Shown here piece after piece: positions 13,660 to 64,000 of a DNA stretch of 64,000 nt. Origin of the DNA: a virus (Duplodnaviria > Heunggongvirae > Uroviricota > Caudoviricetes); the IMG/VR virus record IMGVR_UViG_3300032288_002343, positions 1-64,000 of that record. The stretch is one strand, 5' to 3'. Each line of letters begins with the position of its first letter. Position 1 is the stretch's first letter. The translations under genes and the position numbers were made by a program. Below the pieces are notes generated by a model, which had not been told where the DNA came from, ran no database searches, and saw only the letters and a list, made by a program, of their open reading frames with translations.

Positions 13660-14784
13660 ATGGCACAGTACGATTTACTCATAGTGGGATCTGGCTTATA
13701 TGGTAGTGTATTTGCATATATTATGAGACAGTCAGGTTATCGTTGTCTTGTGATAGATCGTCGTGCTCATACTGGAGGTAACATCTATTGTGAGCGTAAA
13801 GAGGATATTGATGTCCATACCTATGGAGCACATATCTTTCACACTAATGATCAGGATACCTGGGAGTTTGTAAATAGCTTTGTTCCCTTCAATAGATTCA
13901 CCAATTCACCAATGGCTGTATATAAGGGAAAGATGTATAATCTTCCTTTTAATATGAATACCTTCTATCAATTATGGGGAATTAGTAATCCTCAAGAAGT
14001 AAAGCAAAAGATAGCTGAGCAGGTAAAGGAGGCAGGCATAACAAAACCTACTAACTTAGAAGAACAAGCTATTAGTCTGGTAGGTACAGATATTTATGAA
14101 GTGTTGATAAAAGGCTACACTGAGAAACAGTGGGGAAGGTCATGTAGAGAACTACCAACATTCATTATTAAACGATTACCAGTTAGGTTCACCTTTGATA
14201 ATAACTATTTCAATGACAAATATCAAGGTATACCTGAAGGAGGATACAATCGCTTAACTGAAGGATTGCTGGGCGACACACCTATACAGCTTAAGATGGA
14301 CTATCTTGCTAATAGAGAGTATTTCAACTCATTAGCACATTATATACTTTATACAGGTCCTATTGATGCATTCTACAATTATAAGTATGGTACACTAGAT
14401 TATCGCAGCCTTGGATTTCAAGAGCAGTATTTACCAATAGATAACTATCAAGGTGTGGCTGTTGTCAATTATACAGAGGTAGAAGTTCCCTTCACTCGTA
14501 TTGTAGAGCATAAACATTTTACATTTGGTAATCAAGCAGGCACTATCATCACAAAAGAATATCCTATGCAATGGGAAAAGAACCTTGAGCCTTATTATCC
14601 TATCAACGATGAGGTAAATAATAAGCTATTTGCCAGATATCAAGCTCTTGCAGCACATGAATCTAATGTACTATTTGGTGGAAGGTTAGCTGATTACAAG
14701 TATTATGATATGCATCAAGTTATTGCCTCTGCTCGTGTGCGTGCAAATCAATTTATTCAAACTAAATTAAAACAGTCTATATGA
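13660..14784 (+). CDS. glf: UDP-galactopyranose mutase
   Basis: 374 aa. Near full-length similarity to bacterial Glf as recalled from memory. FAD dinucleotide-binding motif VGSGLYG. Other matching segments: HTGGN, YGAHIFHTND, FNRFTNSP, NLPFNMNTF, LEEQAISLVG, IKGYTEKQWGR, RLPVRFTFDNNYF, YQGIP, TRIVEHKHF, EPYYPIND, GRLADYKYYDMHQVI. Confidence 0.9.
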   Translation: MAQYDLLIVGSGLYGSVFAYIMRQSGYRCLVIDRRAHTGGNIYCERKEDIDVHTYGAHIFHTNDQDTWEFVNSFVPFNRFTNSPMAVYKGKMYNLPFNMNTFYQLWGISNPQEVKQKIAEQVKEAGITKPTNLEEQAISLVGTDIYEVLIKGYTEKQWGRSCRELPTFIIKRLPVRFTFDNNYFNDKYQGIPEGGYNRLTEGLLGDTPIQLKMDYLANREYFNSLAHYILYTGPIDAFYNYKYGTLDYRSLGFQEQYLPIDNYQGVAVVNYTEVEVPFTRIVEHKHFTFGNQAGTIITKEYPMQWEKNLEPYYPINDEVNNKLFARYQALAAHESNVLFGGRLADYKYYDMHQVIASARVRANQFIQTKLKQSI

Positions 14785-34094: not shown

Positions 34095-34100
34095 ATAAAA

Positions 34101-34127: not shown

Positions 34128-34148
34128 AAACATTTTAAAAACAAAAAC

Positions 34149-43713: not shown

Positions 43714-44012
43714 AAAACCAGTTTTTCTACACTCGTAAGGAGTTAAAATCAGGGACTCCAGAAAACCCTGTGTACAATGTATTTCGTGACAGCTTTAACA
43801 TCAACAAGGTGATTCGCTCTGTTGCTATTGAGGATGGACGTATAATGATTTTATTAGATGATATCCATGAGCGTGCTCAGGAGGTTCCTGAAATTGATCC
43901 TCGTACTAATAAGATGAAGGGTATGAAGCGTCAGAAGAATACATTCCAGTCTGAAATTTATTTAGAAGGAGAAGACGTAGAACGTTTTTATGCTGCCACT
44001 AATATCATGTAA
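43710..44012 (+). CDS. hypothetical protein
   Basis: 100 aa ORF. Confidence 0.4.
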   Translation: MKNQFFYTRKELKSGTPENPVYNVFRDSFNINKVIRSVAIEDGRIMILLDDIHERAQEVPEIDPRTNKMKGMKRQKNTFQSEIYLEGEDVERFYAATNIM

Positions 44013-44742
44013 AATGATCACTTATGGTAGGGTGAGTACGCTTGAGGAAAGTTTAGAATCTTTCCTCAGGCAGGACTACCCTGCTGATAAATGTGAGCTA
44101 GTGATAGTGAATGACTATCCCTTACAAACTCTTAAGTTTGATCACCCACAGGTGAAGATTGTAAATGTCAATCAAACATTCACAACTATTGGAGCTAAGG
44201 AAAACTTTGCAACAGAAATGTGTGATGGAGAGATTATATGCCAGTGGGATGATGATGATTTAGCTATGCCTTGGCATTTACAGAATGTAGCTAAATATTT
44301 CACAGATGATGTGAACATTCTCCATTGGAATCCTGGTGTGTTTTATAACGGAGATAATATAACAGACATCACCTGGATAGGTAATTCAGGAATAGTATTT
44401 CGTAAATCTGTTTGGAAAGAAATAGGAGGACATCCTATTGAGAACGCTGGATATGACATGACATTCATAGAAACTCTGCATAAGTATGGAGGAAGACTAT
44501 TTGCTGAACCTCCTAAAGCTGAAGCTAGCTGGTTTTATATGTGGGGAGGACGTAGCTATCACATGTCTGGTCAGGGACATGATAAACCTGGCAAACCTAA
44601 TGCCATCCAAAGGCACAGTGCATATATAGAAAACCTTAGACAGCAGGGTAAGATTCCTACAGGTGAGGTGCAACTCAATCCTCATTGGAAAAAGGATTAT
44701 GTTAAGATGTTAGAAGACCACATAAAAAAAGCCCCTAGATAG
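43990..44742 (+). CDS. family 2 glycosyltransferase
   Basis: N-terminal GT-A start ITYGRVSTLEESLESFLRQDYP, VIVNDYP, DxD region QWDDDDL. Confidence 0.6.
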   Translation: MLPLISCKMITYGRVSTLEESLESFLRQDYPADKCELVIVNDYPLQTLKFDHPQVKIVNVNQTFTTIGAKENFATEMCDGEIICQWDDDDLAMPWHLQNVAKYFTDDVNILHWNPGVFYNGDNITDITWIGNSGIVFRKSVWKEIGGHPIENAGYDMTFIETLHKYGGRLFAEPPKAEASWFYMWGGRSYHMSGQGHDKPGKPNAIQRHSAYIENLRQQGKIPTGEVQLNPHWKKDYVKMLEDHIKKAPR

Positions 44743-51948: not shown

Positions 51949-52189
51949 TATTATTTCCTTTTGTTTTATTAATCCATTTGTCTACAGAAGCAATTCCAAA
52001 TGCTCCTAATACTATCACCATAAAACCATCAAAGATAAATTCCTGGATAGGCATCACCTTACCCATAACACCAGTGACAATATCTGTAGCTAGTGTTATT
52101 ACCATCATAAGGAAGGCAATAAATCCAACCACAGCTTTCTCATTGATAGAGTTGTCATCATTAAATAAATCGTGTAAGAACTTTTTCAT
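51923..52189 (-). CDS. holin candidate
   Basis: 88 aa with two hydrophobic helices and a charged C-terminus. Immediately upstream of the endolysin. Confidence 0.5.
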   Translation of the reverse strand: MKKFLHDLFNDDNSINEKAVVGFIAFLMMVITLATDIVTGVMGKVMPIQEFIFDGFMVIVLGAFGIASVDKWINKTKGNNNEQEGTEG

Positions 52190-52779
52190 GCTAATAAATT
52201 GTAGTATTCTTTAAAATGTTTTAAACGGTCAGGAAGACCGATTGTACCACCATTAACACACTTAGTTACAGCTGTAACGGTTGCATCAGAAGCGTCTACA
52301 CATTTTTTCAGACAGTTCTTATGGAAGAACCAGGCAGCTGACAATAAAGGGTATTTAGTGGCTACAAGATCTGGATTAGCTACGATATCTTCAGGGACAA
52401 CAGCGTCAAATGCTTTATAGTTGTCTTTTCCTGTAAGTTGGATGTAGCCTCTTCCACGAAACTTGTATCCTTCACCAGAAGCCTCAGGACCATTTCCCAT
52501 TCTTCCTCCATATACCAGATTAGCTATCTTTTCAGGTTTACGCTCGTACTCCTTAGCTTTAGCTTCTGTGGGGAAATACTTCTTAAAGATGGAAAGAAGA
52601 CCCTTGGCTCCATAATTAAGGTTCTCGTTCACTGCCTTAAATCCAGCTGATTCATGTCCAGCCTGAGCTAGGAAGTGAGCAAGTTTTACGGGGGTGTTAA
52701 TTTCAAACTTGGAGATTGTGTCAGGTAGCTGATCTATTACAGCATCAGGTACGTGACCTTTTAGTTTTTCAATGTTCAT
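52186..52779 (-). CDS. endolysin, glycoside hydrolase family 19 / lysozyme-like
   Basis: LAHFLAQAGHESAGF signature, ...GRGYIQLTG... 197 aa. Confidence 0.7.
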   Translation of the reverse strand: MNIEKLKGHVPDAVIDQLPDTISKFEINTPVKLAHFLAQAGHESAGFKAVNENLNYGAKGLLSIFKKYFPTEAKAKEYERKPEKIANLVYGGRMGNGPEASGEGYKFRGRGYIQLTGKDNYKAFDAVVPEDIVANPDLVATKYPLLSAAWFFHKNCLKKCVDASDATVTAVTKCVNGGTIGLPDRLKHFKEYYNLLA

Positions 52780-53387
52780 TTCTTAAGCTTTATCTTCCAA
52801 TAAGCCCCCAATCCGTATTGTAAATTGCCATAAGTATTTACACTTAGTGACCCTCCAATTAGAAAATCCTTCCTGGTTTTCAGAAGAGCAGAAGCCCCTA
52901 TTTGTGAATTATCACCATCAGTTTGGAAGGCCCCCCCTATATACACCTGGTTAACTTTTTTTGCGGGGAGAGTGATTGTTTCCGTAATTATTGGGTATTT
53001 AATATTCACATGTGTGCCTCTACCAACAATAAGGTTCTTCTGAACTGTGTCAGTTATCTTTACATACCCATTACTATCAATGCGTATGGAATCCTCCATA
53101 ATGTTCTTCGCAAGTAATTGATTTACAATCTCTTGGTACTGAATCACCAGCTTTGCATAGTTGGTATCTGGTATATACTGGTTGATGATAGTATCATGTG
53201 ATTCTATCTCAATAGTCTTCACCAGCTGAGGTTTGCTGTATATCAGGGAATCTTTTACCACCCAAGCTGTGTCTCTAACAATTGTAGGTTCTTCAGAAGG
53301 ACTAGGTTGAGCACACTTTTGCAGCACCACTATTATCAGTAGCACCACTATAGCTAAGGTTAATAAATTCTTCTTGATAAACTCCAT
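52776..53387 (-). CDS. membrane-anchored protein
   Basis: N-terminal TM LLTLAIVVLLIIVVL. 203 aa. Confidence 0.45.
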   Translation of the reverse strand: MEFIKKNLLTLAIVVLLIIVVLQKCAQPSPSEEPTIVRDTAWVVKDSLIYSKPQLVKTIEIESHDTIINQYIPDTNYAKLVIQYQEIVNQLLAKNIMEDSIRIDSNGYVKITDTVQKNLIVGRGTHVNIKYPIITETITLPAKKVNQVYIGGAFQTDGDNSQIGASALLKTRKDFLIGGSLSVNTYGNLQYGLGAYWKIKLKK

Positions 53388-53388
53388 A

Positions 53389-53709
53389 CTAATTACTTAG
53401 ATTGGCAATTATTTTACTGATATATTCAGCTCCCATAACAAGTGTGCCTATAATGGCAGCAGCCCAATACACCTTCTTCTTGAAATCCTCATGTTTTTCC
53501 ACCTGTTTTTCTAGCTTATTTATTTTAGCTTCTAGGTACTCAATATCTTTAACAAAACCTCCCTGTTTAGTGAGGGGATTGCCCAAGATAGCGTCTACCA
53601 CTTGTGTAAGTTTGGTATCTATAGAGTCCATTTTCTCTTCTAGATCATAAAGACGCTGGTCCATACTTTTTAATTCTTCTTTTACTTGTTCTTCAAATAG
53701 ATTTTCCAT
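53389..53709 (-). CDS. coiled-coil protein with C-terminal TM anchor
   Basis: 106 aa. C-terminal WAAAIIGTLVMGA. Confidence 0.45.
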   Translation of the reverse strand: MENLFEEQVKEELKSMDQRLYDLEEKMDSIDTKLTQVVDAILGNPLTKQGGFVKDIEYLEAKINKLEKQVEKHEDFKKKVYWAAAIIGTLVMGAEYISKIIANLSN

Positions 53710-53857
53710 GACAGTATTACATGGGATTAGGTGTTAAAATAAAACACGCCAATTCCCTCCGAAAAGGAACCAGCGTGTTATGTAATTCAGCCCAGAACGG
53801 GCATAATATAGCAATAAGTTGACAGAGTAGGTGTCTGGTGCGAATCTAGGAAATTAT

Positions 53858-53888
53858 TTTGAAACTACCAAATATTTTTTTACCTTTG
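53858..53888 (+). promoter_or_regulatory. Bacteroidota-type promoter (TTTG-N19-TACCTTTG) with near-leaderless start of the mega-enzyme gene
   Basis: atTTTGaaactaccaaatatttttt-TACCTTTG-ctac-ATG. The -7 box ends 4 nt before the ATG at 53893. Confidence 0.5.
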
Positions 53889-53892
53889 CTAC

Positions 53893-56800
53893 ATGCCAAA
53901 TAGCTATACATTCTTCAAGCCAGAAATAAGACAGTGGTTCATTGACAATGTTCCCACCAGTAAGAGAATCTTAGATGTAGGCCCAGGACAGGGGACCTAT
54001 TCCAACCTACTTAGAGACCTTGGATATAGGATGGATGCAGTGGAAGTGTGGGCTCCCTACATAGAGCAATTTGATTTGCGATCTAAGTATGATAATGTCT
54101 ATAACGCCAACATCTTAGACTTTGATTTAACAGATTACGACTTTATTATACTAGGTGATGTTCTAGAGCATATTAGCACAGAGAACGCTCAGAACCTAAT
54201 TGACACTATAGTAAACTCTCTAAAAGATTGCCTAGTGGCAATTCCCTACATGATGGAGCAGGACGGGGAAGAGTATGGAAATGTTTATGAGACCCACCTT
54301 CAAGCAGACCTCACTCCTGATGTAATGAGGCAGCGCTATAAGATTTTAGAACCCATCTATAAGAATCAGTATTATGGTTATTACATCAATAAGCGTATTA
54401 GAATAAAGCGTGGGTTTGTAATGTACGCTACAGAAAGCTATTTAGATACTGTACAGGCAGCTGTAGATTCAATTCGTAAATACAGCTCTCTTAACATTTT
54501 TGTATATATGGTAAACTCCACTGCAAGAGTGAGAGGTGCTGTAACTATTGAATGGCCTGTTGCTATAAAACCTACAGAAAAGAAATCGTTTATTGACCGT
54601 GGAGATAGTAATGTCTATAAACTATTAATCCAGCGTCCTCAGATTGTAAGAGATGCACTACGTTATATGGAAACTGTGGCTTATGTAGATAGCGATAGTG
54701 TTGCCACTCCTTATATCGAACGTATTTTTGACATGTTCCCTGAGAAATCCTCCATCCCTTATTTTGTAGAGGGTATTTATGAATGGATGCTTGCTAATGG
54801 TAGAGGGGGAGCTGATTCTTATGATGATCTATCTACCACTCTTGAGCATCCAGCCTGTGAGCTGTTTGGTGTTAACCAGAAGGTTAGAAAGTTATATAGA
54901 CAAACTGGATATTTTGTAGCAGGCCAGTGGTGTGACAAGTTTCTAGCAGAGTGGAGATGGATGTGTATGCATCCTGAGGTATTTAAAAACCCTCAATACT
55001 ATGCACCCTATCATGAAGAAACTATTGTTAATACCCTCCTATGGAAGCATAACTTCCATGAGGGTTTGCCATACATCTATATAAACGGTGGGCTCGATAG
55101 AGTGAATAAAGCATACGGTGGTGAGGCCAAGTATATTCCTGGAATTCGTAACAATTTAGGACACTTCTTTAGACTACCTGATTCAAGACAAGACATCCTC
55201 TTCTTTCATGGAGAGAAAGATCCTGTTAGAATGAAAGAAATATCTGATAGAATAGACTTCTATAATAAGTACAAGATTGACCCCACAAAAAACTGGGGAG
55301 ATATTATTTCTCATAGGATCATCTCTCATTTTACAACAAAGAAGATTGATCCTATGGATATTTTCCATTTTGATACAAGTGCTATTGTTCCAAAAAAGAA
55401 AGGAAAACTTCTTGCTGTAGGAAGTGCTATGGTGTTTGCTAGACAGAATGACTATGTGTGGGGAACAGGTGTAATATCAGACAGAGAGGTGAATATAGAG
55501 GAACATCCTAGAAAGATATATGCTGTAAGAGGACCTATTACTAGAAAAGAATTACTTCGTGCAGGATTAGAATGTCCTGAGGTGTATGGTGATCCTGCTC
55601 TTTTATTTCCACGTATATACCAACCTAATGTCGATAAGAAGTACAAGTATGGAATAATTCCACACTATTCTGAATATCAGAACGCTGATGTTCTTAATGC
55701 TTTGTACAAGCTAGAAGATATGGAAGTGAAAGTGATTAATATCACTACAGGAATAGAACAATTTGTAGATGAGGTGAATGAGTGTGAATACATCATCTCT
55801 TCTAGCTTACATGGTATAATTGTAGCAGATGCATACAGAATACCTAATGTTCGTGTGCGCATGTCTAATGATATTGTAGGGGGAGATTTCAAGTATATGG
55901 ACTACTTTGCATCTGTAAAACGTGAATACCAACACAAACCTATTTGGATTACAGAGAACACTACACTAGAAGATATTGAAAAGTTTCCATATGAATTAGG
56001 AGACATCAGTTGTGCTGATGACCTATTAGCTAATGCTCCTTGGAAAGATCCTGAGTGTGCACTGTTTACTCCTACTAAAATTTTGTTTGTAGCACCGCAT
56101 CTATCTACAGGTGGAATGCCTGCCTTCCTATTGAAAAGAATAGATGCACTTCTTGCACACTCTGATTTTGAGGTGCATGTTGCTGAGTTTAGTTGCTATA
56201 GTAATGAGTTTGTAGTGCAGCGTAATAAAATTAAAGCAACACTAGGTAAAAGATTCCATGAGGTGGGAGCTGACAAGATGAATCTACTAAACATAATCCA
56301 TGATAACAACATAGATGTAGTGCATGTTGATGAGATTATGGAAGGGTTTGACAGCTTTAATCGTGTACCCACACCTGTATTAAGAGCTCTATATGACTCT
56401 AGAAGAACATGGCGTATTGTTGAGACATGTCACAATGTATGGTTCAATCCTGATAAAGACAAAATATTCCATCCTGATGGATATGCATTCTGTACTCCTT
56501 ATCATGAAATCACATTTGGTAACATGCCTTCTGAGAAGAAGGTGATTCAGTTTCCAATTGAGAATAGAGTGCCAATCTATCAGATGAAACGTAGAGCTAA
56601 AGAACAATTAGGATTTGATCTTAACAAAAAACATGTGCTCAATGTAGGACTATGGACTCCTGGTAAAAACCAAATAGAGGGTTTAGAGATAGCTAGACAA
56701 CTCCCTGACATTCAGTTTCATTTTGTAGGCAATCAAGCTCCTAACTTTGAAGACTACTGGGGACCAGCGATGAAAGATCTTCCTCCTAATGTAAAGATTT

Positions 56801-58254
56801 GGGGAGAGCGCTCTGATACAGAAACATTCATGCATGCTGCAGATATGTTCATGTTCAACTCAACGTGGGAATGTAATCCTCTTGTAGTGAGAGAGGCTAT
56901 ATCTTATGGTCTACCTGTACTCACTCGTGATCTACCACAATATGTAGGAATGTTTGATGATTATATTGTGAAATTAGATGATAGTAGAAAGGTTTGGCAA
57001 GTTAGAGAAATACTGAACTCAGTTGAACCAATAAAAATCCCAAATGATACGAACGAACGTTTCTCTAAAGATCATGAAGTTTTCTATCGTCACTTATTAA
57101 ACTTACCACACATTAAACAGAATAAGGTGTCAGATGTAAAGGTGAATACACATTTCATAGGACGCCCTACAGTAGAGGTTTTAGGAGAAAGTGATAAGAC
57201 TTATACAGTTAAGTTTATTGATGATGGAGGATTTATAATACATCAATCAAAGATTAAAGCTAATGAATGGACAGCTGCCAATCGTGCCTATTATACTGAT
57301 TGGAAAATTGAGGTGTATGAAGAAGATGAGTTGATATATGAACATCAGTTTGATGTAAAAGGTAAGCGTGTATATATTGCTTTCGATAGTGCTTCCTTAG
57401 GAGACAATATTGCATGGATTCCATATGTATTAGAGTTTAAGAGAAAACATAACTGTCATGTGATAGTGTCTACCTTCAAGAACTTCTTATTCAAGGATGT
57501 ATATCCTGAGCTAGAGTTTATCAATCCAGGAGAACAAGCACCGAACATATATGCTATGTATAAATTGGGCTGGTTCTATAATTCAAACTTAGAGCCTGTT
57601 GAACCCCATAAAATTCCTCTTCAAAAGGCTGCCACTAACATTCTAGGACTAGAATTCAACGAACTCAATCCTAGAATAAAGCATAATCTTGCTAAGAATG
57701 TATATGGTAAGTATGTAACAATTGCTACTAATTCAACAGCTCAGTGTAAGTTCTGGACTAAAGAAGGCTGGCAGGGACTGATTAACTATCTAGTTGAAAG
57801 AGGATATAAGGTGGTGAATGTATCTATGGAGAATAATCCATTTGACAACTGTGAGCAGTTGAGAGACAAGTCCATGGAAAACACTATGAACACTATTCAC
57901 CACAGTGAATTCTTCATAGGTTTATCTAGTGGATTGAGTTGGTTAGCGTGGGGACTTGGTAAACAGGTTGTTATGATTGCTAACTTCTCAGATGCCTATC
58001 ATGAATTTACGAGCAGATGTACAAGGATTGTAAAAGAAAATGTGTGCCATGGTTGTTGGAACACTCACAAGTTTGATAAGTCAGACTGGTACTGGTGTCC
58101 TTTGCAGAAAGGAACTAACAGAGAATTTGAATGTCACACATCCATCAATGCTAATGATGTAATTGAGAAGGTAGAATTTATTATTGAAAACATGGGCAAA
58201 CACAATCTAGATACTCATTCTAGATGTGATTCATGTGATAAAAACATACTATGA
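53893..58254 (+). CDS. 1453-aa multidomain glycan-synthesis enzyme: SAM methyltransferase + GT-A (DxD) + pyruvyl-transferase-like + GT4 + GT9 heptosyltransferase-like
   Basis: MTase motif I ILDVGPGQG and IILGDVLEH. GT-A DxD AYVDSDS. SSLHGIIVADAYRIPNV (PS-pyruvyl-transferase-like). GT4 N-terminal KILFVAPHLSTGG and C-terminal ECNPLVVREAISYGLPVLT. GT9-like KRVYIAFDSASLGDNIAWIPYVLEFKRKH and KYVTIATNSTAQCKFW. Confidence 0.75.
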   Translation: MPNSYTFFKPEIRQWFIDNVPTSKRILDVGPGQGTYSNLLRDLGYRMDAVEVWAPYIEQFDLRSKYDNVYNANILDFDLTDYDFIILGDVLEHISTENAQNLIDTIVNSLKDCLVAIPYMMEQDGEEYGNVYETHLQADLTPDVMRQRYKILEPIYKNQYYGYYINKRIRIKRGFVMYATESYLDTVQAAVDSIRKYSSLNIFVYMVNSTARVRGAVTIEWPVAIKPTEKKSFIDRGDSNVYKLLIQRPQIVRDALRYMETVAYVDSDSVATPYIERIFDMFPEKSSIPYFVEGIYEWMLANGRGGADSYDDLSTTLEHPACELFGVNQKVRKLYRQTGYFVAGQWCDKFLAEWRWMCMHPEVFKNPQYYAPYHEETIVNTLLWKHNFHEGLPYIYINGGLDRVNKAYGGEAKYIPGIRNNLGHFFRLPDSRQDILFFHGEKDPVRMKEISDRIDFYNKYKIDPTKNWGDIISHRIISHFTTKKIDPMDIFHFDTSAIVPKKKGKLLAVGSAMVFARQNDYVWGTGVISDREVNIEEHPRKIYAVRGPITRKELLRAGLECPEVYGDPALLFPRIYQPNVDKKYKYGIIPHYSEYQNADVLNALYKLEDMEVKVINITTGIEQFVDEVNECEYIISSSLHGIIVADAYRIPNVRVRMSNDIVGGDFKYMDYFASVKREYQHKPIWITENTTLEDIEKFPYELGDISCADDLLANAPWKDPECALFTPTKILFVAPHLSTGGMPAFLLKRIDALLAHSDFEVHVAEFSCYSNEFVVQRNKIKATLGKRFHEVGADKMNLLNIIHDNNIDVVHVDEIMEGFDSFNRVPTPVLRALYDSRRTWRIVETCHNVWFNPDKDKIFHPDGYAFCTPYHEITFGNMPSEKKVIQFPIENRVPIYQMKRRAKEQLGFDLNKKHVLNVGLWTPGKNQIEGLEIARQLPDIQFHFVGNQAPNFEDYWGPAMKDLPPNVKIWGERSDTETFMHAADMFMFNSTWECNPLVVREAISYGLPVLTRDLPQYVGMFDDYIVKLDDSRKVWQVREILNSVEPIKIPNDTNERFSKDHEVFYRHLLNLPHIKQNKVSDVKVNTHFIGRPTVEVLGESDKTYTVKFIDDGGFIIHQSKIKANEWTAANRAYYTDWKIEVYEEDELIYEHQFDVKGKRVYIAFDSASLGDNIAWIPYVLEFKRKHNCHVIVSTFKNFLFKDVYPELEFINPGEQAPNIYAMYKLGWFYNSNLEPVEPHKIPLQKAATNILGLEFNELNPRIKHNLAKNVYGKYVTIATNSTAQCKFWTKEGWQGLINYLVERGYKVVNVSMENNPFDNCEQLRDKSMENTMNTIHHSEFFIGLSSGLSWLAWGLGKQVVMIANFSDAYHEFTSRCTRIVKENVCHGCWNTHKFDKSDWYWCPLQKGTNREFECHTSINANDVIEKVEFIIENMGKHNLDTHSRCDSCDKNIL

Positions 58255-58928
58255 ACCTAGACAACTTTATATGGGAACCAAATCTGTACCCAACATTTAA
58301 AGAAACAATTATCAATGAGATCTTTGAACAGAAGATCTACGAACGTATATTTCCTGTAGAGGAGGGAGATGTAGTGCTGGATATTGGGGCTAGTCTTGGA
58401 CCATTCACATTCTCTATTCTACACAAGAAACCAAAACATGTGTTTGCCCTAGAGCCAAGTTACTCAGAGTTTAAAACGTTGGTTCTCAATACATTACACG
58501 GAAATGTTACACCTATCAACAAAGGGATAGGTGCTAAGGTGGGAGAGTTTAAGTTTGACAACATCTTTCTAAACGATGGTATAAAGATGTACTCAACTAC
58601 ATTCACACAGTTGATTGATGATTATAACATCCAGACAATTGACTTCCTTAAGACAGATTGTGAGGGTGGGGAGTATGACATATTCACTCCTGCTAATCTC
58701 ATATGGATTAAGCAGAACGTAAAGAAGATTGCAGGAGAATGGCACTTAACCACTCCTGAACTAAGAGAAAAGTTTAGAGCATTCAGAGACACCTACTTAA
58801 GAATATTCCATAGACATCAAGTGTATTCAGTGGATGCTGTTAATATCACTTGGGATCTATGGAATGATAAATTTTTGAACTACTATAGTGAAGTGATTCT
58901 TTATATAGACAATCAGGATTATTTGTAG
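58251..58928 (+). CDS. FkbM-family SAM-dependent methyltransferase
   Basis: VLDIGASLGPFTF motif. 225 aa. Start overlaps the mega-enzyme stop. Confidence 0.6.
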   Translation: MNLDNFIWEPNLYPTFKETIINEIFEQKIYERIFPVEEGDVVLDIGASLGPFTFSILHKKPKHVFALEPSYSEFKTLVLNTLHGNVTPINKGIGAKVGEFKFDNIFLNDGIKMYSTTFTQLIDDYNIQTIDFLKTDCEGGEYDIFTPANLIWIKQNVKKIAGEWHLTTPELREKFRAFRDTYLRIFHRHQVYSVDAVNITWDLWNDKFLNYYSEVILYIDNQDYL

Positions 58929-59506
58929 TGATCTCCTCCTACCCAGAGAACAAAAGAACGACGTATACCAGTTGTCACACGTGTAACACGGTGCATCATA
59001 TATGACGGGAAAATAAACACTACGCCTTTTTCTTTAGGAGCTGTCATATAACCATCTCCACCCTGCCAGTATTGTAAATCACCACCTTCATATTCATCAG
59101 GGCCAGACAGTTGTACAGTGATGGATACCTTTCTTTGAGAGAGCCATCCTGGTCCAATATCTTGGTGCCAGCCATAATGACCATTATCTACAGCATGATA
59201 TTCAGTGTACTGAATGCTATCCATTACAGAGTGAAGATCAAACTTCCATAAAGCATTATTAGCTTCTGTTGCCATGTTTATCATCTTCTCATAAAGCCAT
59301 TCCCATTCAGAATTTTTTGGAACCCATTTTATAATAGAAGAACGAATGTCCTTCATTGAATCACTAGCCACTGTGGCTTGTTCAAAAGGAAGAGCAGCAA
59401 CACCAGCATATACACGTTCTAACTCTTCAGGAGAAAACCCCTGTAGATAGTAATAGTAGTTGGTTGGGTCAGTTGTCTCTTTAGGAAATACGTATGTATT
59501 TGTCAT
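58919..59506 (-). CDS. 2OG-Fe(II) oxygenase, prolyl 4-hydroxylase-like (P4Hc)
   Basis: HxD in HYGWHQDIG, second His in MMHRVTRV, RxS in RRSFVLW. GGDLQYW. Confidence 0.7.
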   Translation of the reverse strand: MTNTYVFPKETTDPTNYYYYLQGFSPEELERVYAGVAALPFEQATVASDSMKDIRSSIIKWVPKNSEWEWLYEKMINMATEANNALWKFDLHSVMDSIQYTEYHAVDNGHYGWHQDIGPGWLSQRKVSITVQLSGPDEYEGGDLQYWQGGDGYMTAPKEKGVVFIFPSYMMHRVTRVTTGIRRSFVLWVGGDHYK

Positions 59507-60723
59507 ATGTTTGGTTTATAAATATAATTTGCAACACCCTCTTCAGTTCCAAATTTATTAGGAATCTCATCAAGATCTTTATCTTTTTGTTCGTACACCC
59601 AGTCAGTAATTTTTAACTGCTTGAATCTATTAGCTATGCTTTCATTATAGAACTCAGCAATAGATGCCACTCTACGTTGAATATCAGCACGAGCTACATC
59701 ATGTGAATTGCGCTCTTGTTCATTCTGGTAGATGATTTGTATATATCCTAGACGACAAATCTTACAGAACTTTGTGTACAAGAAACTTCTCACTACTAGT
59801 TCATAATCATCAGCAATAGTCATATCTCTATTATGTCCTCCTATAGACAAGTAGAAACTTTTACGCCATGCTCTAATGTGATTAGGAATTCCTACAATAT
59901 GACGTATAGTTTTTGGATTAATGTTATGTTGATCACAAACATCCCAAATATTTCCTTTGTAATCCTCTCTTCTATACTTTCCATATCCAAAAGCAAACCC
60001 TGGTCCGTATGTAAGAGACTGAAACTGTTCATTCACCTCCACCCAATCAGTGAAGAAGAACCCAACATCTGGATATTTAAGTGCAGCATTATATAAATCT
60101 AATGCACATGTGTCTGTAAGAATATCATCATGATCAAGCTCTGCTAGAATAAATCCTTTGCACAGCATCGCTGCTCTGTATTTAGCTTCACCAATATTAC
60201 CTCCACTCTTCTCTTCAAAATTGTATACACGCACTCGATGGTCATCTTTAGCAATCTTTTTTGCAATCTCAAGAGTTTCTTCATCGTCACTATCATGTAC
60301 AAGCACCCATTCCCAATCTTTATGAATTTGACTTACTAAGGATGCATAAGTTCTTAATAGTTTTTTTCCTGTCTTATACATGGATGTAAAGAAGGAAATT
60401 GTTCTAGCGTTGTTCTGTGTAAGAATCTGATTCATGGCACAGAAATAAGCACGCTGTCCTAGATCTTCTGTTACTGTTTCTGTATTAAACCATCTCTTTC
60501 TTACCTCATGTGTTTCATTAAACAGCTTTGGAAACTCTCTATCTGATTTACCAATTGTAACAATTGCATCTGGTTTGAATTCAACAAGTGTTTTAGTCAA
60601 TTCTTTTTCATCAGGAACATGTTTCACACAAAGTGTTCTTTCTTCAAAATCAAACCTCTGTATAGTTTTTAACTCTGGAGTGCCTGGTCCAACGTATAAT
60701 ATTTTAGGCAACGTGGTTTTCAT
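59503..60723 (-). CDS. family 2 glycosyltransferase
   Basis: WVLVHDSDDEETLEIAKKIAKDDHRVRV and ELDHDDIL (DxD). Confidence 0.6.
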   Translation of the reverse strand: MKTTLPKILYVGPGTPELKTIQRFDFEERTLCVKHVPDEKELTKTLVEFKPDAIVTIGKSDREFPKLFNETHEVRKRWFNTETVTEDLGQRAYFCAMNQILTQNNARTISFFTSMYKTGKKLLRTYASLVSQIHKDWEWVLVHDSDDEETLEIAKKIAKDDHRVRVYNFEEKSGGNIGEAKYRAAMLCKGFILAELDHDDILTDTCALDLYNAALKYPDVGFFFTDWVEVNEQFQSLTYGPGFAFGYGKYRREDYKGNIWDVCDQHNINPKTIRHIVGIPNHIRAWRKSFYLSIGGHNRDMTIADDYELVVRSFLYTKFCKICRLGYIQIIYQNEQERNSHDVARADIQRRVASIAEFYNESIANRFKQLKITDWVYEQKDKDLDEIPNKFGTEEGVANYIYKPNI

Positions 60724-61846
60724 GATACTTGGTTTTGAAATGATTCAGGTTATCAAGCAACCTTGGTTTGTGGTGCTCAAAATCTGGATCATCTATAATT
60801 GCATTAATCAATTTAACACCTTGCTCAGGTTTGTTAGTCCAAAAGCAAGATACAGAAAGTTCATCATAATTCCATTTACCATATGCTGATTCATCTACAA
60901 AAAGAATATACTTATTCTTCATAGCAGTCAAGTCTTTCTTGACAGCCTCATTTAGGTAGTGATATCCCTTTTCAAAGTCTCTTAACGTGTTAAAATGTAT
61001 TCCCATGTAATGATAGGGCTCAGCTCTGTCTGGGAATATTTCTATAGCTTTTCTCATCTCACGTTCAATAAGTTCAATATCAGCATTCATGCTTATGTAG
61101 ATTTTTCCTATCCTAAGCTGTGCCTCAAATCTTTCTTCTATCCACGTGTTTTGTAGTTTTAGGTAGAGATTGTTCCACTGTAGCGCTTCTGTGTACATGC
61201 CATAATCCATGTAGCTTTGTGCTGTATAGAAGGCAGATCTGTTGTTTAGATCATCTGGGTCCTCTATAAGCGTGTCAAAGAATTGCTTCTGAAGGCGCTG
61301 TGCATCATAGAAAAACTTCTTAGGATCGAATGCACGTGACCCAATACCCTCACAAATGATATAAGAGGAATCACTGATGTCGCCCATTGAAAAGTTTGGC
61401 TTCTCAAGGCACTTGATTGTAGTGTGAGCCACACCACAGAACTTCCATGTATAAGAAGCTTTGAATAAAATAAGTGCTTTATAGTTAGAACCCCCACGTC
61501 TAACATTCATATAGTAGGAGTCTTTGTCAGGGTCATTTTCGGGAAAGAAAAATTCGCCAGCCAAAAGATCGTCAGCATCCAAATGCATGATATAATCTGC
61601 CTTATCTTTAGCACAAGCAATCATCTTAGTCTTGCTCTTGTCAAATCCCTCAAAGGTTTCAGCATAGAACTTTCCTGGAATGTTCTTCTCTTTAAAGAAG
61701 GTTTCCACTATTTCTTGTGTTCTATCTGTAGAACCAGTGTCATATACGACCCAGTGGTCAATATATTTATAGACAGACTCAAGCGTATCTTTGATACAAT
61801 GTTCTTCGTTCTTGCACATTGTAGCAAAGCAAATTGTTGGTTTCAT
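60704..61846 (-). CDS. family 2 glycosyltransferase with TPR-like C-terminal domain
   Basis: ICFATMCKNEEHCIKDTLESV...VYDTGSTDRT...MHLDADDLL. TPR-like YHYMGIHFNTLRDFEKGYHYLNEA. Confidence 0.6.
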   Translation of the reverse strand: MKPTICFATMCKNEEHCIKDTLESVYKYIDHWVVYDTGSTDRTQEIVETFFKEKNIPGKFYAETFEGFDKSKTKMIACAKDKADYIMHLDADDLLAGEFFFPENDPDKDSYYMNVRRGGSNYKALILFKASYTWKFCGVAHTTIKCLEKPNFSMGDISDSSYIICEGIGSRAFDPKKFFYDAQRLQKQFFDTLIEDPDDLNNRSAFYTAQSYMDYGMYTEALQWNNLYLKLQNTWIEERFEAQLRIGKIYISMNADIELIEREMRKAIEIFPDRAEPYHYMGIHFNTLRDFEKGYHYLNEAVKKDLTAMKNKYILFVDESAYGKWNYDELSVSCFWTNKPEQGVKLINAIIDDPDFEHHKPRLLDNLNHFKTKYHENHVA

Positions 61847-62757
61847 TAAATATCAAAAAAGAATAGGTGAAAGAATCTAGAGTTTTCAATAGCATCTCCG
61901 AAGTAGCCAGTCGCAGCATGAATTGATTTAGCGTCAAACATTACTAAACGATTATAAACATTAGCTACACTATCTACCATCTCAAATGTGCTATTATCAT
62001 AGAAGTTAAGATCACTATTTTTCCCTTTAAATGTTGGTTCAAATAGAGGATGGTCGTTTGTATCAAAGCGTGTAGCTCCTGTAAGCTTGCTCTTAAAGCT
62101 AGCTGTTCCAGAACGCAAAGGTGCATCTGGTGTTAGATACACCATTGCCGCATAGTTCTGAGTATCAACATGATATACAATAGGATCTTGTGCTGTGCAG
62201 AACTGAAACACACCATTTGCATAGTTAGGGTGATTCCAATTATAGATTGGTCTACCAAGGATGCTTTCAAATGCTTCCTTCGTACCACTCAATATGAATT
62301 GATCTGTGCTTCTTTGCCCTCTGTGGTAACCAGAAAAATTAAAGGTGAGGTTCTTCATTGCATATTCTCTCACCTCATCAGGATTATTGTAAAAGTTGTC
62401 AACAACAATTAAGTTCTTGTTCTTGTTATTAAATCCTAGATGATAAATGTACCAAGGATAGATACTACCTATCTCACGAACAATACCTCTTTCAGTGACT
62501 ACATCTATAAGCTTGTTAAAATCTTCCTTTCTTAGCTTAAACTCTACTCCCACTTGAGTTGTAGGAAGAGTAGGGTATACCCCTAAAACGTCAAAACGGT
62601 CATGAACATTAACTTTAATGTCCTGACCGTCTATCTTTAACCCTGTGACTTTCAGAGTTTTATGCGTTATCCAACCTTTTATATTATATTCATCTCCATC
62701 AGGAGTGATAGAATCAATGTACCAAAGAACATTACTGTTCCTAGAATCATGTGCCAT
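61846..62757 (-). CDS. cupin / 2OG-Fe(II) oxygenase-like protein (tentative)
   Basis: NLIVVDNFYNNPDEVREYA, HxD-like YHVDTQ, a later His in SIHAATGYFG and NSRFF. Assignment is weak. Confidence 0.35.
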   Translation of the reverse strand: MAHDSRNSNVLWYIDSITPDGDEYNIKGWITHKTLKVTGLKIDGQDIKVNVHDRFDVLGVYPTLPTTQVGVEFKLRKEDFNKLIDVVTERGIVREIGSIYPWYIYHLGFNNKNKNLIVVDNFYNNPDEVREYAMKNLTFNFSGYHRGQRSTDQFILSGTKEAFESILGRPIYNWNHPNYANGVFQFCTAQDPIVYHVDTQNYAAMVYLTPDAPLRSGTASFKSKLTGATRFDTNDHPLFEPTFKGKNSDLNFYDNSTFEMVDSVANVYNRLVMFDAKSIHAATGYFGDAIENSRFFHLFFFDI

Positions 62758-62810: not shown

Positions 62811-63353
62811 TTAAGGGAGTCTATCTACAAGAGGGAAATAAAGAAGACCTCCTGGATTTAGATTTGCTGCATATTTAGCTTCCAAAATAGGTTTTTGTTG
62901 ATTAAGATCTTCTATGTTATTTACCCAGATGTCAATTAATATGACATCATATTTTTCATTGGTAACATGAGTCATTATATCTCCTTGAATAATATTCACC
63001 TTTGGATGAAGATAGTTTGTATTATTCTTAACAAGGTCAATAACTTCTGAATCTAGCTCAACAACATCCACCTTGGTACAAAAAGGTTGTGTTAGAAAAG
63101 GCGCCACACCCATTCCAAGACCACCACATAGAATACTTGTAAAGCTTCTATTGTAGAGTTTATCTAAATAACTTTCTATAAATTGTACATGATCAAAAAA
63201 GACAGTACCATCAAATGCATGTTGCATGATTAAATACTTATTGTCTTTCTGTTTTACAATTCTCCAATCACCACTTCTTACAAAATTAGTGGTCATTTGA
63301 TTTTTGAAGTTATCTAAAACACCTACACCAGAGAGTCCAGTTTTTACTAACAT
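62811..63353 (-). CDS. spermidine-synthase-fold / class I SAM-binding Rossmann protein
   Basis: ILCGGLGMGV (compare SpeE GGGDGG), VDVVELDSEVIDLV, IQGDIMTHV...YDVILIDIW. Confidence 0.45.
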   Translation of the reverse strand: MLVKTGLSGVGVLDNFKNQMTTNFVRSGDWRIVKQKDNKYLIMQHAFDGTVFFDHVQFIESYLDKLYNRSFTSILCGGLGMGVAPFLTQPFCTKVDVVELDSEVIDLVKNNTNYLHPKVNIIQGDIMTHVTNEKYDVILIDIWVNNIEDLNQQKPILEAKYAANLNPGGLLYFPLVDRLP

Positions 63354-63365: not shown

Positions 63366-63926
63366 TTAAATACAGGTGAGAAATGTTCCTGTTTTTACAA
63401 ACACTGCTATAGTCATATAACGTTTACCAGTTCCAGTAGGAGTGGTAGTATAGTACTGTCCTTGCCCTGAATCAACTGTTCCACAATAAGCAGTAGATGT
63501 AGCTGGACAATCAGTAGCATCAGCTACATCAAATTGTCTTCCACTATTTTTTCCACTACTTGGGACAGCAGCAAATCCAAGTTGTAAGTCAGTTGTTGGG
63601 GGAATAGATACAGTTCCCATTGTATTACATGTTGTACTTATACTACTTCCATATACTAATAGGGTATCAGCTCCAAAACTTATATTGTAATAAATTGCAT
63701 AGTTACCTGTAGTTTCACCAAAAGCACTAGATATATATTTAGCATCTATTGCAATAGAATATCCACATGAATAGCTATAAAAATCACTCATAGCATCAGG
63801 ACTAGAAAATCCTGCACAAGCACTTAATCTACGTAATGAGTAGTCACCTCCTTCACAACAACCATTACCAACTATCTCAGTATATATATCACTAATTGAT
63901 ATTACACCACTGCTAGGAAGAGGCAT
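63366..63926 (-). CDS. Ser/Thr/Gly/Cys-rich protein (possible fiber or adhesin tip)
   Basis: 186 aa, low-complexity S/T/G/Y with 10 Cys. No motif match. Confidence 0.4.
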   Translation of the reverse strand: MPLPSSGVISISDIYTEIVGNGCCEGGDYSLRRLSACAGFSSPDAMSDFYSYSCGYSIAIDAKYISSAFGETTGNYAIYYNISFGADTLLVYGSSISTTCNTMGTVSIPPTTDLQLGFAAVPSSGKNSGRQFDVADATDCPATSTAYCGTVDSGQGQYYTTTPTGTGKRYMTIAVFVKTGTFLTCI

Positions 63927-63941
63927 ATTATTTTAATTTTG

Positions 63942-64000
63942 TTTTTAGTTCATTAATTTGAGATTGCTGTTCCTTTATAGCCTCAATCAAAAGTGCTACA
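63942..64000 (-). CDS. 3' end of a minus-strand gene continuing beyond the window
   Basis: Reverse frame reads ...VALLIEAIKEQQSQINELKTKLK-stop, 13 nt upstream of the next ATG. Very short fragment. Confidence 0.25.

Follow-up and report, generated by a model that had tools for sequence, protein, structure and literature searches.

A five-module phage enzyme with a TibC/Aah-type domain and its proposed role in the glycosylation of collagen-like tail fibres

A phage related distantly to Cellulophaga and crAss-like phages encodes a 1453-aa polypeptide in which a methyltransferase, two glycosyltransferases, a pyruvyl-transferase-like module, and a homologue of the BAHT protein serine O-heptosyltransferases TibC and AAH are fused. 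The gene lies in the window analysed here (the whole 64,000-nt stretch of DNA), which derives from a phage genome of ~116 kb. We lean towards the interpretation that the enzyme, a soluble protein, works as an assembly line in the cytoplasm of a Bacteroidota host and builds a protein-linked glycan there, with collagen-like fibres as the presumed acceptor of O-glycosylation. As the enzyme gene adjoins Ser/Thr-rich collagen-like fibre genes, the phage's own fibres are most likely what it sugar-coats. Glycosylation of collagen-like fibres by such an enzyme appears to be an undescribed system.

Integrity and modules of the enzyme

The initial annotation had described a single ORF of 1453 aa at positions 53893-58254 with five fused domains. 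The coordinates, ATG start, and length were exactly right, and all five fold or family assignments hold by Pfam, TIGR04414, the TibC match, and Foldseek. The nucleotide ranges it had proposed fall within the module boundaries (aa 1-166, 167-455, 456-728, and 729-1431) that we defined from natural architecture variants, and the domain-boundary analysis it had suggested, performed with Pfam/NCBIfam profiles, an AF2 model, and Foldseek, confirmed the GT and MTase assignments. The maximal Kyte-Doolittle 19-residue average of the protein was 1.18, with no window above 1.6.

Features of the window discussed in the text (aa, position in the enzyme; strand relative to the window)
Feature	aa	Position	Strand	Basis or remark
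UDP-galactopyranose mutase (Glf), UDP-galactofuranose supplier		13660..14784	+	TIGR00031, 396 bits vs cut-off 304
Third GT2 glycosyltransferase		43990..44742	+	
Bacteroidota-type promoter		53858..53888	+	TTTG (-33), 19-nt spacer, TACCTTTG (-7); read from sequence
Five-module enzyme gene	1-1453	53893..58254	+	ATG start; soluble, no TM segment
Module A, class-I SAM methyltransferase	1-166	53893..54390	+	Pfam; boundary from variants lacking or replacing the module
Module B, GT-A fold glycosyltransferase	167-455	54391..55257	+	AF2, Foldseek
Module C, polysaccharide pyruvyl-transferase-like	456-728	55258..56076	+	PF04230
Module D, GT4 (GT-B, retaining type)	729-~1040	56077..57012	+	Pfam, motif, fold
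Module E, TibC-type beta-barrel and BAHT catalytic domain	~1041-1453	57013..58251	+	TIGR04414, TibC alignment, fold
FkbM-type methyltransferase gene		58251..58928	+	Start overlaps enzyme stop (ATGA)
2OG-Fe(II) oxygenase, prolyl-hydroxylase-type family		58919..59506	-	PF13640
GT2 glycosyltransferase, soluble		59503..60723	-	No TM segment
GT2 glycosyltransferase, soluble		60704..61846	-	No TM segment
DUF6445 protein		61846..62757	-	Bacteroidota-type promoter motif 16 nt upstream
Small methyltransferase-like protein		62811..63353	-	No TM segment
186-aa protein between fibre gene and glycan island		63366..63926	-	No family match
Collagen-like tail-fibre gene, 3' end		63928..64000	-	Continues past window; 1182 aa; proposed acceptor

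An ORF of this length could be an artefact in which adjacent genes were merged by a sequencing or assembly frameshift, and separate relatives do exist for MTase plus GT-A (~450 aa), GT-A alone (~300 aa), and GT4-BAHT (~700 aa). This explanation was refuted, and we assign it virtually no probability: at least four independently assembled contigs from different samples, including a scaffold of 115,908 bp, carry the identical 1453-aa protein; dozens of full-length orthologues exist at 54-91% identity, the five-module order being unchanged in those at 91%, 65%, and ~55%; and third-codon-position substitutions dominate across every module junction. Compared with the 91% orthologue, the gene shows 373 synonymous and 129 non-synonymous codon differences (106/54/420 differences by codon position, across all modules) and, judging from this comparison of sequences, is under purifying selection.

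The enzyme belongs to a large, modular, and uncharacterised family in phages, comprising more than 546 IMG/VR loci with two to seven modules and a constant GT4-BAHT core. The three glycosyltransferase modules (GT-A, GT4, and BAHT) keep their catalytic motifs without variation throughout the family alignment. Module A is a swappable N-terminal unit among the variants; its residues 21-112 matched Methyltransf_23 (31.4 bits; cut-off 27) and Methyltransf_11 (27.0 bits; cut-off 21.2), and a SAM-binding motif of the GxGxG type, ILDVGPGQG, could be read from the single sequence. Module C, which is optional in the family and missing from 1139-aa variants, is predicted to be pyruvyl-transferase-like by its Pfam profile (PS_pyruv_trans, aa 541-655, 57.7 bits vs cut-off 25.3), with an alignment spanning only profile positions 124-276 of 280. 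Module D matched Glycos_transf_1 (aa 900-1023, 41.6 bits vs cut-off 26.4), resembled MshA, BshA, WaaG, and PimB' in Foldseek (E ~1e-9), and contains E993-x7-E1001 (nt 56869-56895), of which both Glu residues are invariant in the family alignment.

Module B had no Pfam match at E<=1 and no significant match among PDB sequence profiles, and the corresponding region of 250 homologues carries no Pfam annotation; as judged by sequence, the GT-A family that it represents is thus unclassified. The AF2 model of this module (pLDDT 91.5) matched retaining GT-A enzymes in Foldseek (E ~2e-7, probability 1.00, TM ~0.5), including the GT6 ABO transferases GTA/GTB, alpha3GalT, the GT24 domain of UGGT, and the GT8 enzyme glycogenin. 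The modelled fold is thus that of a GT-A enzyme of the retaining GT6/GT8/GT24 type. The DxD motif (D266-S-D268, nt 54688-54696) and H439-G-E-K442 are invariant in the family alignment.

The C-terminal TibC/Aah-type domain

The C-terminus had initially been read as GT9 heptosyltransferase-like. The heptosyltransferase-like fold is borne out, whereas an LPS GT9 enzyme was rejected: aa 1102-1428 scored 270.9 bits against TIGR04414 (hepto_Aah_TibC), for which the NCBIfam equivalog cut-off is 200, and the catalytic Asp, iron-finger cysteines, and beta-barrel of TibC are present. By profile and alignment, the domain is a homologue of BAHT protein serine O-heptosyltransferases. TibC (PDB ID: 4rap) matched module E with an E-value of 1.9e-46 by sequence and 8.5e-26 by Foldseek (target-normalised TM 0.78), and the structural alignment (~383 columns) covers nearly all 385 residues of the TibC chain. 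This BAHT identity points to a protein acceptor, which was absent from the first reading.

Module E was then compared with functional features described for TibC, namely Asp110, Thr226, Lys230, Trp305, and Cys339/342/358/370 (PMC4358343). The beta-barrel (eight strands at aa ~1082-1164 in the AF2 model), the GT-B-like core, the catalytic Asp, and the Thr, Lys, and Trp residues are common to TibC/AAH (PDB ID: 4rap/4rb4) and the phage domain, in which the four residues correspond to D1171, T1282, K1286, and W1350. The four cysteines are also shared, as C1385, C1388, C1402, and C1414, and predict an iron finger; all eight positions are invariant in 20 family members. The heptose-binding Arg286 of TibC is not conserved in module E, where T1331 takes its place and is invariant across the phage family, including relatives carrying ADP-heptose genes. 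In the pairwise alignment, a 9-residue gap covers the tip of the beta-hairpin thumb (Phe265/Val266) on which the TibC dodecameric ring depends, and the position of Pro300 is occupied by Ser, as in AAH. Because of the Arg-to-Thr replacement and the probable shortening of the thumb hairpin, the donor and quaternary structure may differ from those of TibC. Moreover, TibC is a stand-alone protein of 406 aa, whereas the phage-encoded domain is a C-terminal fusion to four other transferase modules. Known BAHT substrates are beta-helical autotransporters; no autotransporter substrate is present in the phage, in which a collagen-like fibre is the likely acceptor. That known acceptors are beta-helices and not collagen helices counts against the fibre as substrate.

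Genomic context of the enzyme gene

The initial annotation placed a canonical promoter 4 nt from the ATG. The 4-nt spacing was confirmed, but the promoter is of the Bacteroidota type (TTTG-N19-TAnnTTTG), and a scan of the + strand at this position for sigma-70 TTGACA/TATAAT sites found none. The composite Bacteroidota-type motif occurs 8 times in the window, where 2.4 +/- 1.4 occurrences would be expected, and the enzyme-gene promoter contains the conserved element AACTACCAAAT, an 11-mer occurring once in the window. Of 31 orthologous loci, 25 have TAnnTTTG upstream of the enzyme gene, and in seven of these the gap is 4-7 nt. Given this conserved promoter and its short gap to the ATG, a near-leaderless enzyme transcript is plausible.

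The enzyme gene belongs to an island encoding soluble glycan enzymes, which extends up to the collagen-like tail-fibre gene. The FkbM gene lies directly 3' of the enzyme gene in 28 related loci and is missing at the locus of the 91% orthologue; in other variants it forms part of the enzyme itself. No TM segment was detected in the enzyme or any island gene. The fibre comprises ~900 aa of G-X-Y triplets and a Peptidase_S74 chaperone domain, and matched Pfam Collagen (2e-110), Peptidase_S74, and PHROG tail-fibre families. Genes for terminase, portal, replication, and lysis were identified, in keeping with a lytic phage.

The usual interpretation of glycosyltransferases in phage tail-fibre regions is that they alter polysaccharide of the host envelope (EPS, capsule, or LPS O-chain), which could serve to prevent superinfection, and glycosyltransferases and rfaE in the hypervariable fibre regions of pelagimyophages were read in this way (PMC7029224). 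Polysaccharide pathways typically contain GT2, GT4, PS_pyruv_trans, Glf, and rfaE-like genes, a point that also weighs against fibre glycosylation, and one GT2 weakly matches the PHROG 'GtrB-like O-antigen conversion'. We nevertheless consider host-polysaccharide remodelling improbable for this enzyme and its island. Besides the lack of TM segments, no flippase or polymerase (Wzx/Wzy-like), ligase, or initiating phosphoglycosyl transferase was found in the window; the constant core is a BAHT domain, for which the sole characterised activity is cytoplasmic protein O-glycosylation; Ser/Thr-rich fibre genes are in tight convergent synteny; and the genome has a lytic appearance, no integrase having been seen among the phage genes examined.

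Hypermodification of phage DNA with a complex glycan that evades restriction is very improbable. Phage GT-A and GT-B enzymes can glycosylate DNA, according to Pyle et al. (2024), and the window has genes of nucleotide metabolism, namely RNR, dUTPase, and a faint UDG match. Against this, no base-hydroxymethylase or related gene is near the island, which is located in the fibre/lysis region and not in the replication module, and the BAHT fold has protein-binding accessories (beta-barrel and iron finger). We know of no precedent for pyruvylation and methylation of DNA-linked sugars, which further disfavours a DNA target.

To assess synteny with fibre genes, we de-replicated the family at 90% identity into 57 lineages and scanned 410 kb downstream and 407 kb upstream of the enzyme genes. 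A collagen-like ORF was downstream and convergent in 29 lineages, at -7 to 6152 bp from the enzyme stop, and upstream in 2; the retrieved flank contained none in 28 lineages, many of these flanks being short. The collagen-like ORFs near the enzyme are of the (G-T-S)n type, with Ser/Thr in 87% of triplets (GTS, 51%), Pro in 1.8%, and Lys in 0.7%. The pairing recurs in the unrelated lineages of Microcystis phage Mel-JY01 and jumbo phage LR756501. Synteny between homologous phages may be inherited rather than functional, and the link between enzyme and fibre is made by inference.

Protein glycosylation might instead be directed at virion proteins other than the fibres, such as those of the capsid or tail tube, or at host proteins, with which the BAHT domain and solubility fit equally well. 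Roughly half of the lineages lack a collagen-like gene in the retrieved flank, and mycobacteriophages are known to glycosylate capsid and tail-tube proteins of the virion (Freeman et al., 2023). As fibre genes are the recurrent neighbour, with Ser/Thr in most triplets, and the pairing is found again in unrelated phages, we judge such targets unlikely, if credible.

Proposed function and comparison with known systems

If collagen-like fibres are the acceptor, the TibC-like module would attach the first sugar to Ser/Thr hydroxyls of (Gly-Thr-Ser)n-type chains before or during fibre trimerisation. This sugar would probably be heptose from ADP-L,D-heptose, since the selectivity position is Ser, as in AAH. 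ADP-heptose genes were absent from the window; homologues of heptose-7-P kinase, heptose-1-P adenylyltransferase, and ADP-heptose 6-epimerase adjoin the enzyme gene in six related loci. Elongation of the glycan would fall to two retaining-type modules, GT4 and GT-A, and its capping to the pyruvyl-transferase-like module, the fused class-I methyltransferase, and the translationally coupled FkbM enzyme; the adjacent GT2s, Glf, and oxygenases could diversify it. Assembly of several steps by one protein may be processive, as initially suggested; the modules also occur as separate genes in relatives. Such a sugar coat would stabilise the proline-poor triple helix and/or make a variable, protective, or receptor-binding fibre surface.

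In mimivirus (L230) and Bacillus anthracis (BclA), dedicated enzymes glycosylate surface fibres that consist of collagen-like G-X-Y triplets. BclA has Thr-rich GPT-type triplets bearing O-linked oligosaccharides capped by a methylated sugar. L230 hydroxylates Lys and then transfers glucose onto hydroxylysine of viral collagen-like proteins, whereas Ser/Thr dominates over Lys in the phage triplets; the two enzymes are unrelated, and the phage glycosylation is predicted. Mycobacteriophages decorate their own structural proteins with phage-encoded glycosyltransferases (Freeman et al., 2023), as proposed here; that system relies on separate, small GT genes whose products modify capsid and tail-tube subunits at their C-termini, with neither BAHT nor a collagen-like acceptor.

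The initial annotation correctly cited as precedent PBCV-1 A064R, a 638-aa protein with two rhamnosyltransferase domains and a methyltransferase domain (PMC9614988). Fold searches found no homology between A064R and the phage enzyme, which nevertheless shares the multidomain architecture of A064R-type viral glycan enzymes (Pfam, TIGR04414, and Foldseek), with several glycosyltransferase domains and a methyltransferase in one viral polypeptide. The phage enzyme has five modules (up to seven in relatives) against three, adding an initiating protein-glycosyltransferase module and the pyruvyl-transferase-like module. A064R builds N-linked glycans on a capsid protein of a eukaryotic virus, whereas those of the phage enzyme would be O-linked, on a presumed acceptor, in a bacterial virus. 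In both systems a separate methyltransferase finishes the decoration, A061L in PBCV-1 and, as predicted, the FkbM gene product in the phage. PBCV-1 A111/114R is a further multidomain glycan-building precedent beside A064R.

Integrity and modular anatomy of the enzyme

Both the ORF listing and the translation showed the gene at 53893..58254 (+) as one ATG-initiated ORF of 1453 aa with no internal stops. An identical 1453-aa protein was present on four or more contigs, each from another sample, among them the 115,908-bp scaffold_26 of ERZ28594320, and the same order of parts was present in full-length orthologues at 91, 65, and ~55% identity. Compared with the 91% orthologue, the gene showed 373 synonymous and 129 non-synonymous codon differences, with 106 changes at first, 54 at second, and 420 at third codon positions, scattered over all modules. 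The identical protein on these contigs, the order in the orthologues, and the dominance of third-position changes bore out the single polypeptide proposed in the initial annotation and excluded an artefactual joining of several genes. The enzyme carried a 21-aa C-terminal extension (…GKHNLDTHSRCDSCDKNIL; window 58189-58254) beyond the ends of its orthologues, with the exception of the 91% orthologue, which aligned over the full length. The top 19-residue Kyte-Doolittle average was 1.18; lacking a hydrophobic segment, the enzyme is predicted to be cytoplasmic.

The five-module anatomy was solidly established. Architecture variants within the family provided natural module boundaries (aa 1-166, 167-455, 456-728, and 729-1431). 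The class-I SAM methyltransferase previously read in module A was confirmed by Pfam matches above threshold (Methyltransf_23 and _11) and an ILDVGPGQG motif in the translation. The pyruvyl-transferase-like assignment of module C also held, at 57.7 bits to PS_pyruv_trans (cut-off 25.3); the match spanned the C-terminal half of the profile, and module C alone gave one insignificant match against the PDB. Module D was recognized as GT4 by Glycos_transf_1 (41.6 vs 26.4 bits) and an invariant E993-x7-E1001, and its structural neighbours were MshA, BshA, WaaG, and PimB'. Module B had no Pfam match even at E<=1, and a profile of 31 module B sequences yielded only chance-level, non-significant matches to PDB sequences. 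Its AlphaFold2 model (pLDDT 91.5) had retaining GT-A enzymes as Foldseek neighbours (E about 2e-7, probability 1.00, TM about 0.5), including ABO GTA/GTB and alpha-1,3-GalT (GT6), the UGGT catalytic domain (GT24), and glycogenin (GT8). This placement and the invariant D266-x-D268 agreed with the earlier reading of a GT-A fold with a DxD motif; H439-G-E-K442 was likewise invariant. At the sequence level, module B is an unclassified GT-A family.

Relationship of module E to TibC and extent of the family

Module E had been described as GT9 heptosyltransferase-like. The heptosyltransferase likeness was upheld by NCBIfam TIGR04414 'autotransporter strand-loop-strand O-heptosyltransferase' (270.9 bits; equivalog cut-off 200); the Pfam GT9 match itself was weak (21.5 bits; gathering cut-off 22). 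Module E matched TibC, a characterized bacterial autotransporter heptosyltransferase (BAHT), in both sequence (1.9e-46) and fold (E 8.5e-26; target-normalized TM 0.78). We compared its residues with those defined in the TibC structure paper (PMC4358343). The catalytic base Asp110 and the ligand residues Thr226, Lys230, and Trp305 of TibC were all kept in module E and invariant in the family, as were the four iron-finger cysteines. In contrast, TibC Arg286 was replaced by an invariant Thr, and a 9-residue deletion took in the tip of the beta-hairpin thumb, the element that assembles the dodecamer in TibC. The stereoselectivity position, Pro300 in TibC and Ser294 in the BAHT AAH, was occupied by Ser. 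In the AF2 model, an eight-stranded beta-barrel preceded the catalytic domain. These comparisons suggest that module E is BAHT-like in action, but its donor, oligomer, and recognition mode may differ from, and need not match, those of TibC because of the Arg286-to-Thr replacement, the shortened thumb, and a different acceptor architecture.

The homologue search with the enzyme returned 628 relatives, and at least 546 loci were confirmed in IMG/VR, on contigs typically ~100 kb and up to 321 kb long. The constant core of the family was GT4-BAHT, which also stands alone as an ORF of ~700 aa. Longer architectures comprised GT-A-GT4-BAHT (~990-1035 aa), MTase-GT-A-GT4-BAHT (~1140-1177 aa), and pyruvyl-transferase-bearing versions (1295, 1453, and 1494 aa). 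Extra FkbM, GT32, or GT25 modules occurred in some versions, the maximum being seven modules in 1914 aa (FkbM MTase, GT32, class-I MTase, GT-A, pyruvyl transferase, GT4, and BAHT); the large relatives included proteins of 1914 (P0019), 1725 (P0037), and 1524 aa (P0050). Module B was also found solo (~300 aa) or with a methyltransferase (~450 aa). In all three glycosyltransferase modules, the catalytic motifs were invariant across the family. A full scan of module E against 1.84 billion representatives gave 1520 clusters at 50% identity, mostly of multidomain proteins, 743 of them at E<=1e-30; 137 of the best 150 of the 1520 exceeded 450 aa, leaving 13 within the size range of stand-alone TibC. 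The family is abundant but unannotated. A 985-aa UniProt member from 'Virus NIOZ-UU157' was labelled only 'Glycosyl transferase family 1 domain-containing protein', a megablast search with the gene gave no match among 50,697 phage records, and tblastn gave single-domain matches only.

Collagen-like fibres and the predicted acceptor

The big gene and the following FkbM methyltransferase gene form a two-gene unit on the + strand, flanked by - strand blocks on both sides. The FkbM gene was missing at L001, the locus of the 91% orthologue, and was therefore recently inserted or lost; in other variants, the FkbM domain was fused into the enzyme. Downstream of the unit were a PF13640 2OG-Fe(II) oxygenase, two GT2s, DUF6445, a small methyltransferase, and a 186-aa unknown, and a third GT2 was encoded elsewhere in the window. 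The sugar-modifying proteins of this island, composed only of soluble enzymes, had no TM segments. The phage also encodes a UDP-galactopyranose mutase (Glf), which implies galactofuranose in some phage-directed glycan; its gene lies in the early/replication region, distant from the island.

Beyond the island lies the gene for a 1182-aa protein, which ends at window 63928, with the last 23 codons and stop inside the window and the rest on the same scaffold. The protein contains ~900 residues of G-X-Y triplets (GAQ, GTS, GAT, GSS, and GPT) and a C-terminal Peptidase_S74 intramolecular-chaperone domain, and matched Pfam Collagen (2e-110) and PHROG tail-fibre families. The next gene encodes a likewise GTS-rich protein of 1902 aa. 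To place this arrangement in the family, we used a synteny set of 86 loci, de-replicated at 90% BAHT identity to 57 lineages. A collagen-like ORF lay downstream of the enzyme in 29/57 lineages and upstream in 2/57 (410 and 407 kb scanned per side, respectively). In the 28 lineage representatives that allowed measurement, the ORF was encoded on the other strand, at a distance of -7 to 6152 bp from the enzyme stop. Triplets of the family's collagen-like ORFs were mainly GTS (51%), GSS (13.5%), and GTT (8.7%); 87% contained Ser or Thr, 1.8% Pro, and 0.7% Lys. The same pairing recurred in two lineages outside the family. The order was collagen ORF, structural protein, and 1226-aa GT4...TibC_1st-BAHT fusion in the cultured Microcystis phage Mel-JY01, and collagen-like ORF, GT4 protein, and GT4-BAHT fusion in the 735-kb jumbo phage LR756501.

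In Mel-JY01 (L091, PP395634.1), the collagen-like ORF at 2-3049 (+) extends from the very start of the record and may wrap around the record ends; it encodes at least 1016 aa and matched Pfam Collagen at 1.4e-66. It is unannotated; two - strand 'hypothetical protein' CDSs overlie it in the deposited record, so the fibre gene seems to be mis-annotated. Within the family, one enzyme variant bore an N-terminal GT25 domain. GT25 takes in the animal collagen galactosyltransferases, and the occurrence of this variant in a family with collagen-like neighbours may be regarded as a suggestive coincidence.

The genes between enzyme and fibre differed by lineage. They included FkbM methyltransferase (28 loci), sulfotransferase and APS kinase (15-16 loci), DegT/PglD-type amino-sugar genes, and arrays of 2OG oxygenases. 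Six loci carried a triad with heptose-7-phosphate kinase, heptose-1-phosphate adenylyltransferase, and ADP-heptose 6-epimerase as best NCBIfam matches; no ADP-heptose genes were found within the 64-kb window. We also asked whether the pyruvyl-transferase module and nearby sulfotransferase/APS-kinase genes replace each other, as two routes to negative charge; such an inverse relation was rejected because the distribution was mixed. The idea that the PF13640 oxygenase makes hydroxy-Pro/Lys acceptors on the fibre, as in collagen or Skp1, was weak in view of the Pro and Lys content of the triplets, although the fibre of the window phage does have GPT triplets; the oxygenase was near the enzyme in only 9 loci.

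From these sequence relationships, the collagen-like fibre is a well-motivated predicted acceptor. The BAHT module would initiate O-glycosylation on fibre Ser/Thr, probably with ADP-L,D-heptose as donor, a choice suggested by the AAH-like Ser at the selectivity position and by the 6-epimerase encoded nearby in relatives. GT4 and GT-A, the two retaining-type transferases, would then lengthen the glycan, the pyruvyl-transferase-like module and methyltransferases would cap it, and the neighbouring GT2s and Glf would contribute lineage-specific sugars. In Riftia cuticle collagen, glycosylated Thr stabilizes proline-poor helices, and the collagen-like fibre BclA is both Thr-rich and glycosylated; these precedents provide a rationale for coupling glycosylation to almost proline-free fibres. 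We tentatively propose, with rather less than even confidence, that aquatic phages possess a self-contained, membrane-independent O-glycosylation system in which a TibC-type initiator fused to extenders and caps coats proline-poor, collagen-like (Gly-Thr-Ser)n tail fibres and in which glycan, not hydroxyproline, stabilizes the triple helix. Hypervariable accessory genes (sulfo-, methyl-, and pyruvyl-transferases, and heptose/Galf supply) would vary the surface of the fibre in much the way that LPS is varied by an O-antigen locus, and phage fibres would be the main habitat of BAHTs, the E. coli autotransporter enzymes being a side branch.

Modification of the host envelope by the enzyme and island, the standard reading of such clusters (PMC7029224), is disfavoured by the BAHT core and by the lack of a membrane component; no flippase- or polymerase-like multi-TM protein was present in the window. 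Glycosylation of other virion or host proteins, which differs from fibre glycosylation in the acceptor only, fits the enzymology equally well, whereas DNA is an unlikely substrate of the enzyme.

Multidomain viral glycan enzymes (A064R and A111/114R), glycosylation of viral collagen-like proteins (mimivirus L230), BAHTs (PMC4358343), and virion glycosylation in mycobacteriophages are already known. In the incompletely covered literature on BAHT/TibC in phages, glycosylated collagen-like phage fibres, and Mel-JY01, we found no description of such a system, of a phage BAHT, of the modular GT4-BAHT family, or of its link to collagen-like fibres; with this coverage, the blank is absence of evidence only. 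If correct, fibre glycosylation would give the glycan factories of giant viruses their first counterpart among bacteriophages and show, for the first time, a BAHT-type enzyme at work outside autotransporter biology, and would identify a very abundant unannotated protein family. It would also explain the frequent glycosyltransferase clusters in hypervariable tail-fibre regions of aquatic phages, which are usually taken as host O-antigen modification genes (PMC7029224). With two to seven transferase modules fused in one chain, the family would be a natural, modular source of tools for cytoplasmic protein glyco-engineering. Because Mel-JY01 has the same pairing, a direct experiment in a cultured system is possible.

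Upstream region and phage genome

The canonical promoter reported 4 nt from the ATG held in its spacing but is not of the sigma-70 type. On the + strand upstream of the ATG, a sigma-70 scan gave no site, with overall counts at shuffle level. The sequence TTTG-N19-TACCTTTG at 53858-53888, ending 4 nt before the ATG of the big gene, instead corresponds to the Bacteroidota -33/-7 promoter consensus, TTTG / TAnnTTTG. TAnnTTTG alone was not enriched in the window (71 found vs 71.5 expected), so only the composite motif and its conservation in orthologues are informative. The composite motif occurred 8 times in the window (2.4 +/- 1.4 expected), at least 5/8 sites lying 4-24 nt upstream of an ATG, and TAnnTTTG preceded the start in 25/31 orthologous loci, the gap being 4-7 nt in seven loci and ~18-24 nt in most of the rest. 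This enrichment and conservation make plausible a host in the Bacteroidota and a big-gene transcript with a very short leader or none. An extended non-coding element, TTTGAAACTACCAAAT, around the -33 box (window 53859-53874: TTGAAACTACCAAAT) was conserved upstream of the orthologous gene in L001, L004, L015, L018, L025, L035, L038, L042, and L065, while the proteins were only ~55% identical. Its 11-mer core occurred exactly once in the 64-kb window, and the element may be a gene-specific regulatory site, not a general promoter. Between the divergent lysis cassette and big gene, the intergenic region also contained a hairpin with a 17-bp stem followed by a T-run (window 53743-53779, - strand). 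It was stronger than any other terminator-like site in the region scanned; none of the - strand genes ends at this position.

Contig RFPH01000002.1 of GCA_009926265.1 (L004; 112,468 bp), binned in a 'Cytophagia bacterium' MAG, carries the enzyme with endolysin, heptose, sulfation, and methylation genes, and the 23-kb stretch examined resembled the enzyme-bearing phage family in gene content. Either the contig is a phage genome placed in the wrong bin, or it hints at the host group.

Coordinates of phage and sugar-related genes in the window
Feature	Position	Strand	Remarks
Band_7/SPFH-domain protein	2892-3422	-	adjoins portal gene
UDP-galactopyranose mutase (Glf)	13660-14784	+	396 bits vs equivalog cut-off 304
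rIIA/rIIB homologues	31776-35684	+	
Lysis cassette	51923-53709	-	directly upstream of big gene; GH19 endolysin and holin-like protein
Small two-TM protein	51923-52189	-	
GH19-type endolysin	52186-52779	-	
203-aa protein with N-terminal hydrophobic segment	52776-53387	-	
106-aa coiled-coil protein	in lysis cassette	-	matches PHROG 'hemolysin' (XhlA-like)
FkbM methyltransferase gene	58251-58928	+	start overlaps enzyme stop (ATGA)

Phage genes in the window included those for portal, large terminase, DNA polymerase, primase, helicases, rIIA/rIIB, ribonucleotide reductase, and a UvsX-like recombinase. A search of the window for tRNA genes gave none. The terminase was closest to that of Leptolyngbya phage Lbo-JY46 (41%), followed by Cellulophaga phages phi17:2 and phi4:1 (32%) and crAss-like phages (27%). 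The rIIA/rIIB homologues occur in a phage with a terminase related to those of Cellulophaga and crAss-like phages.
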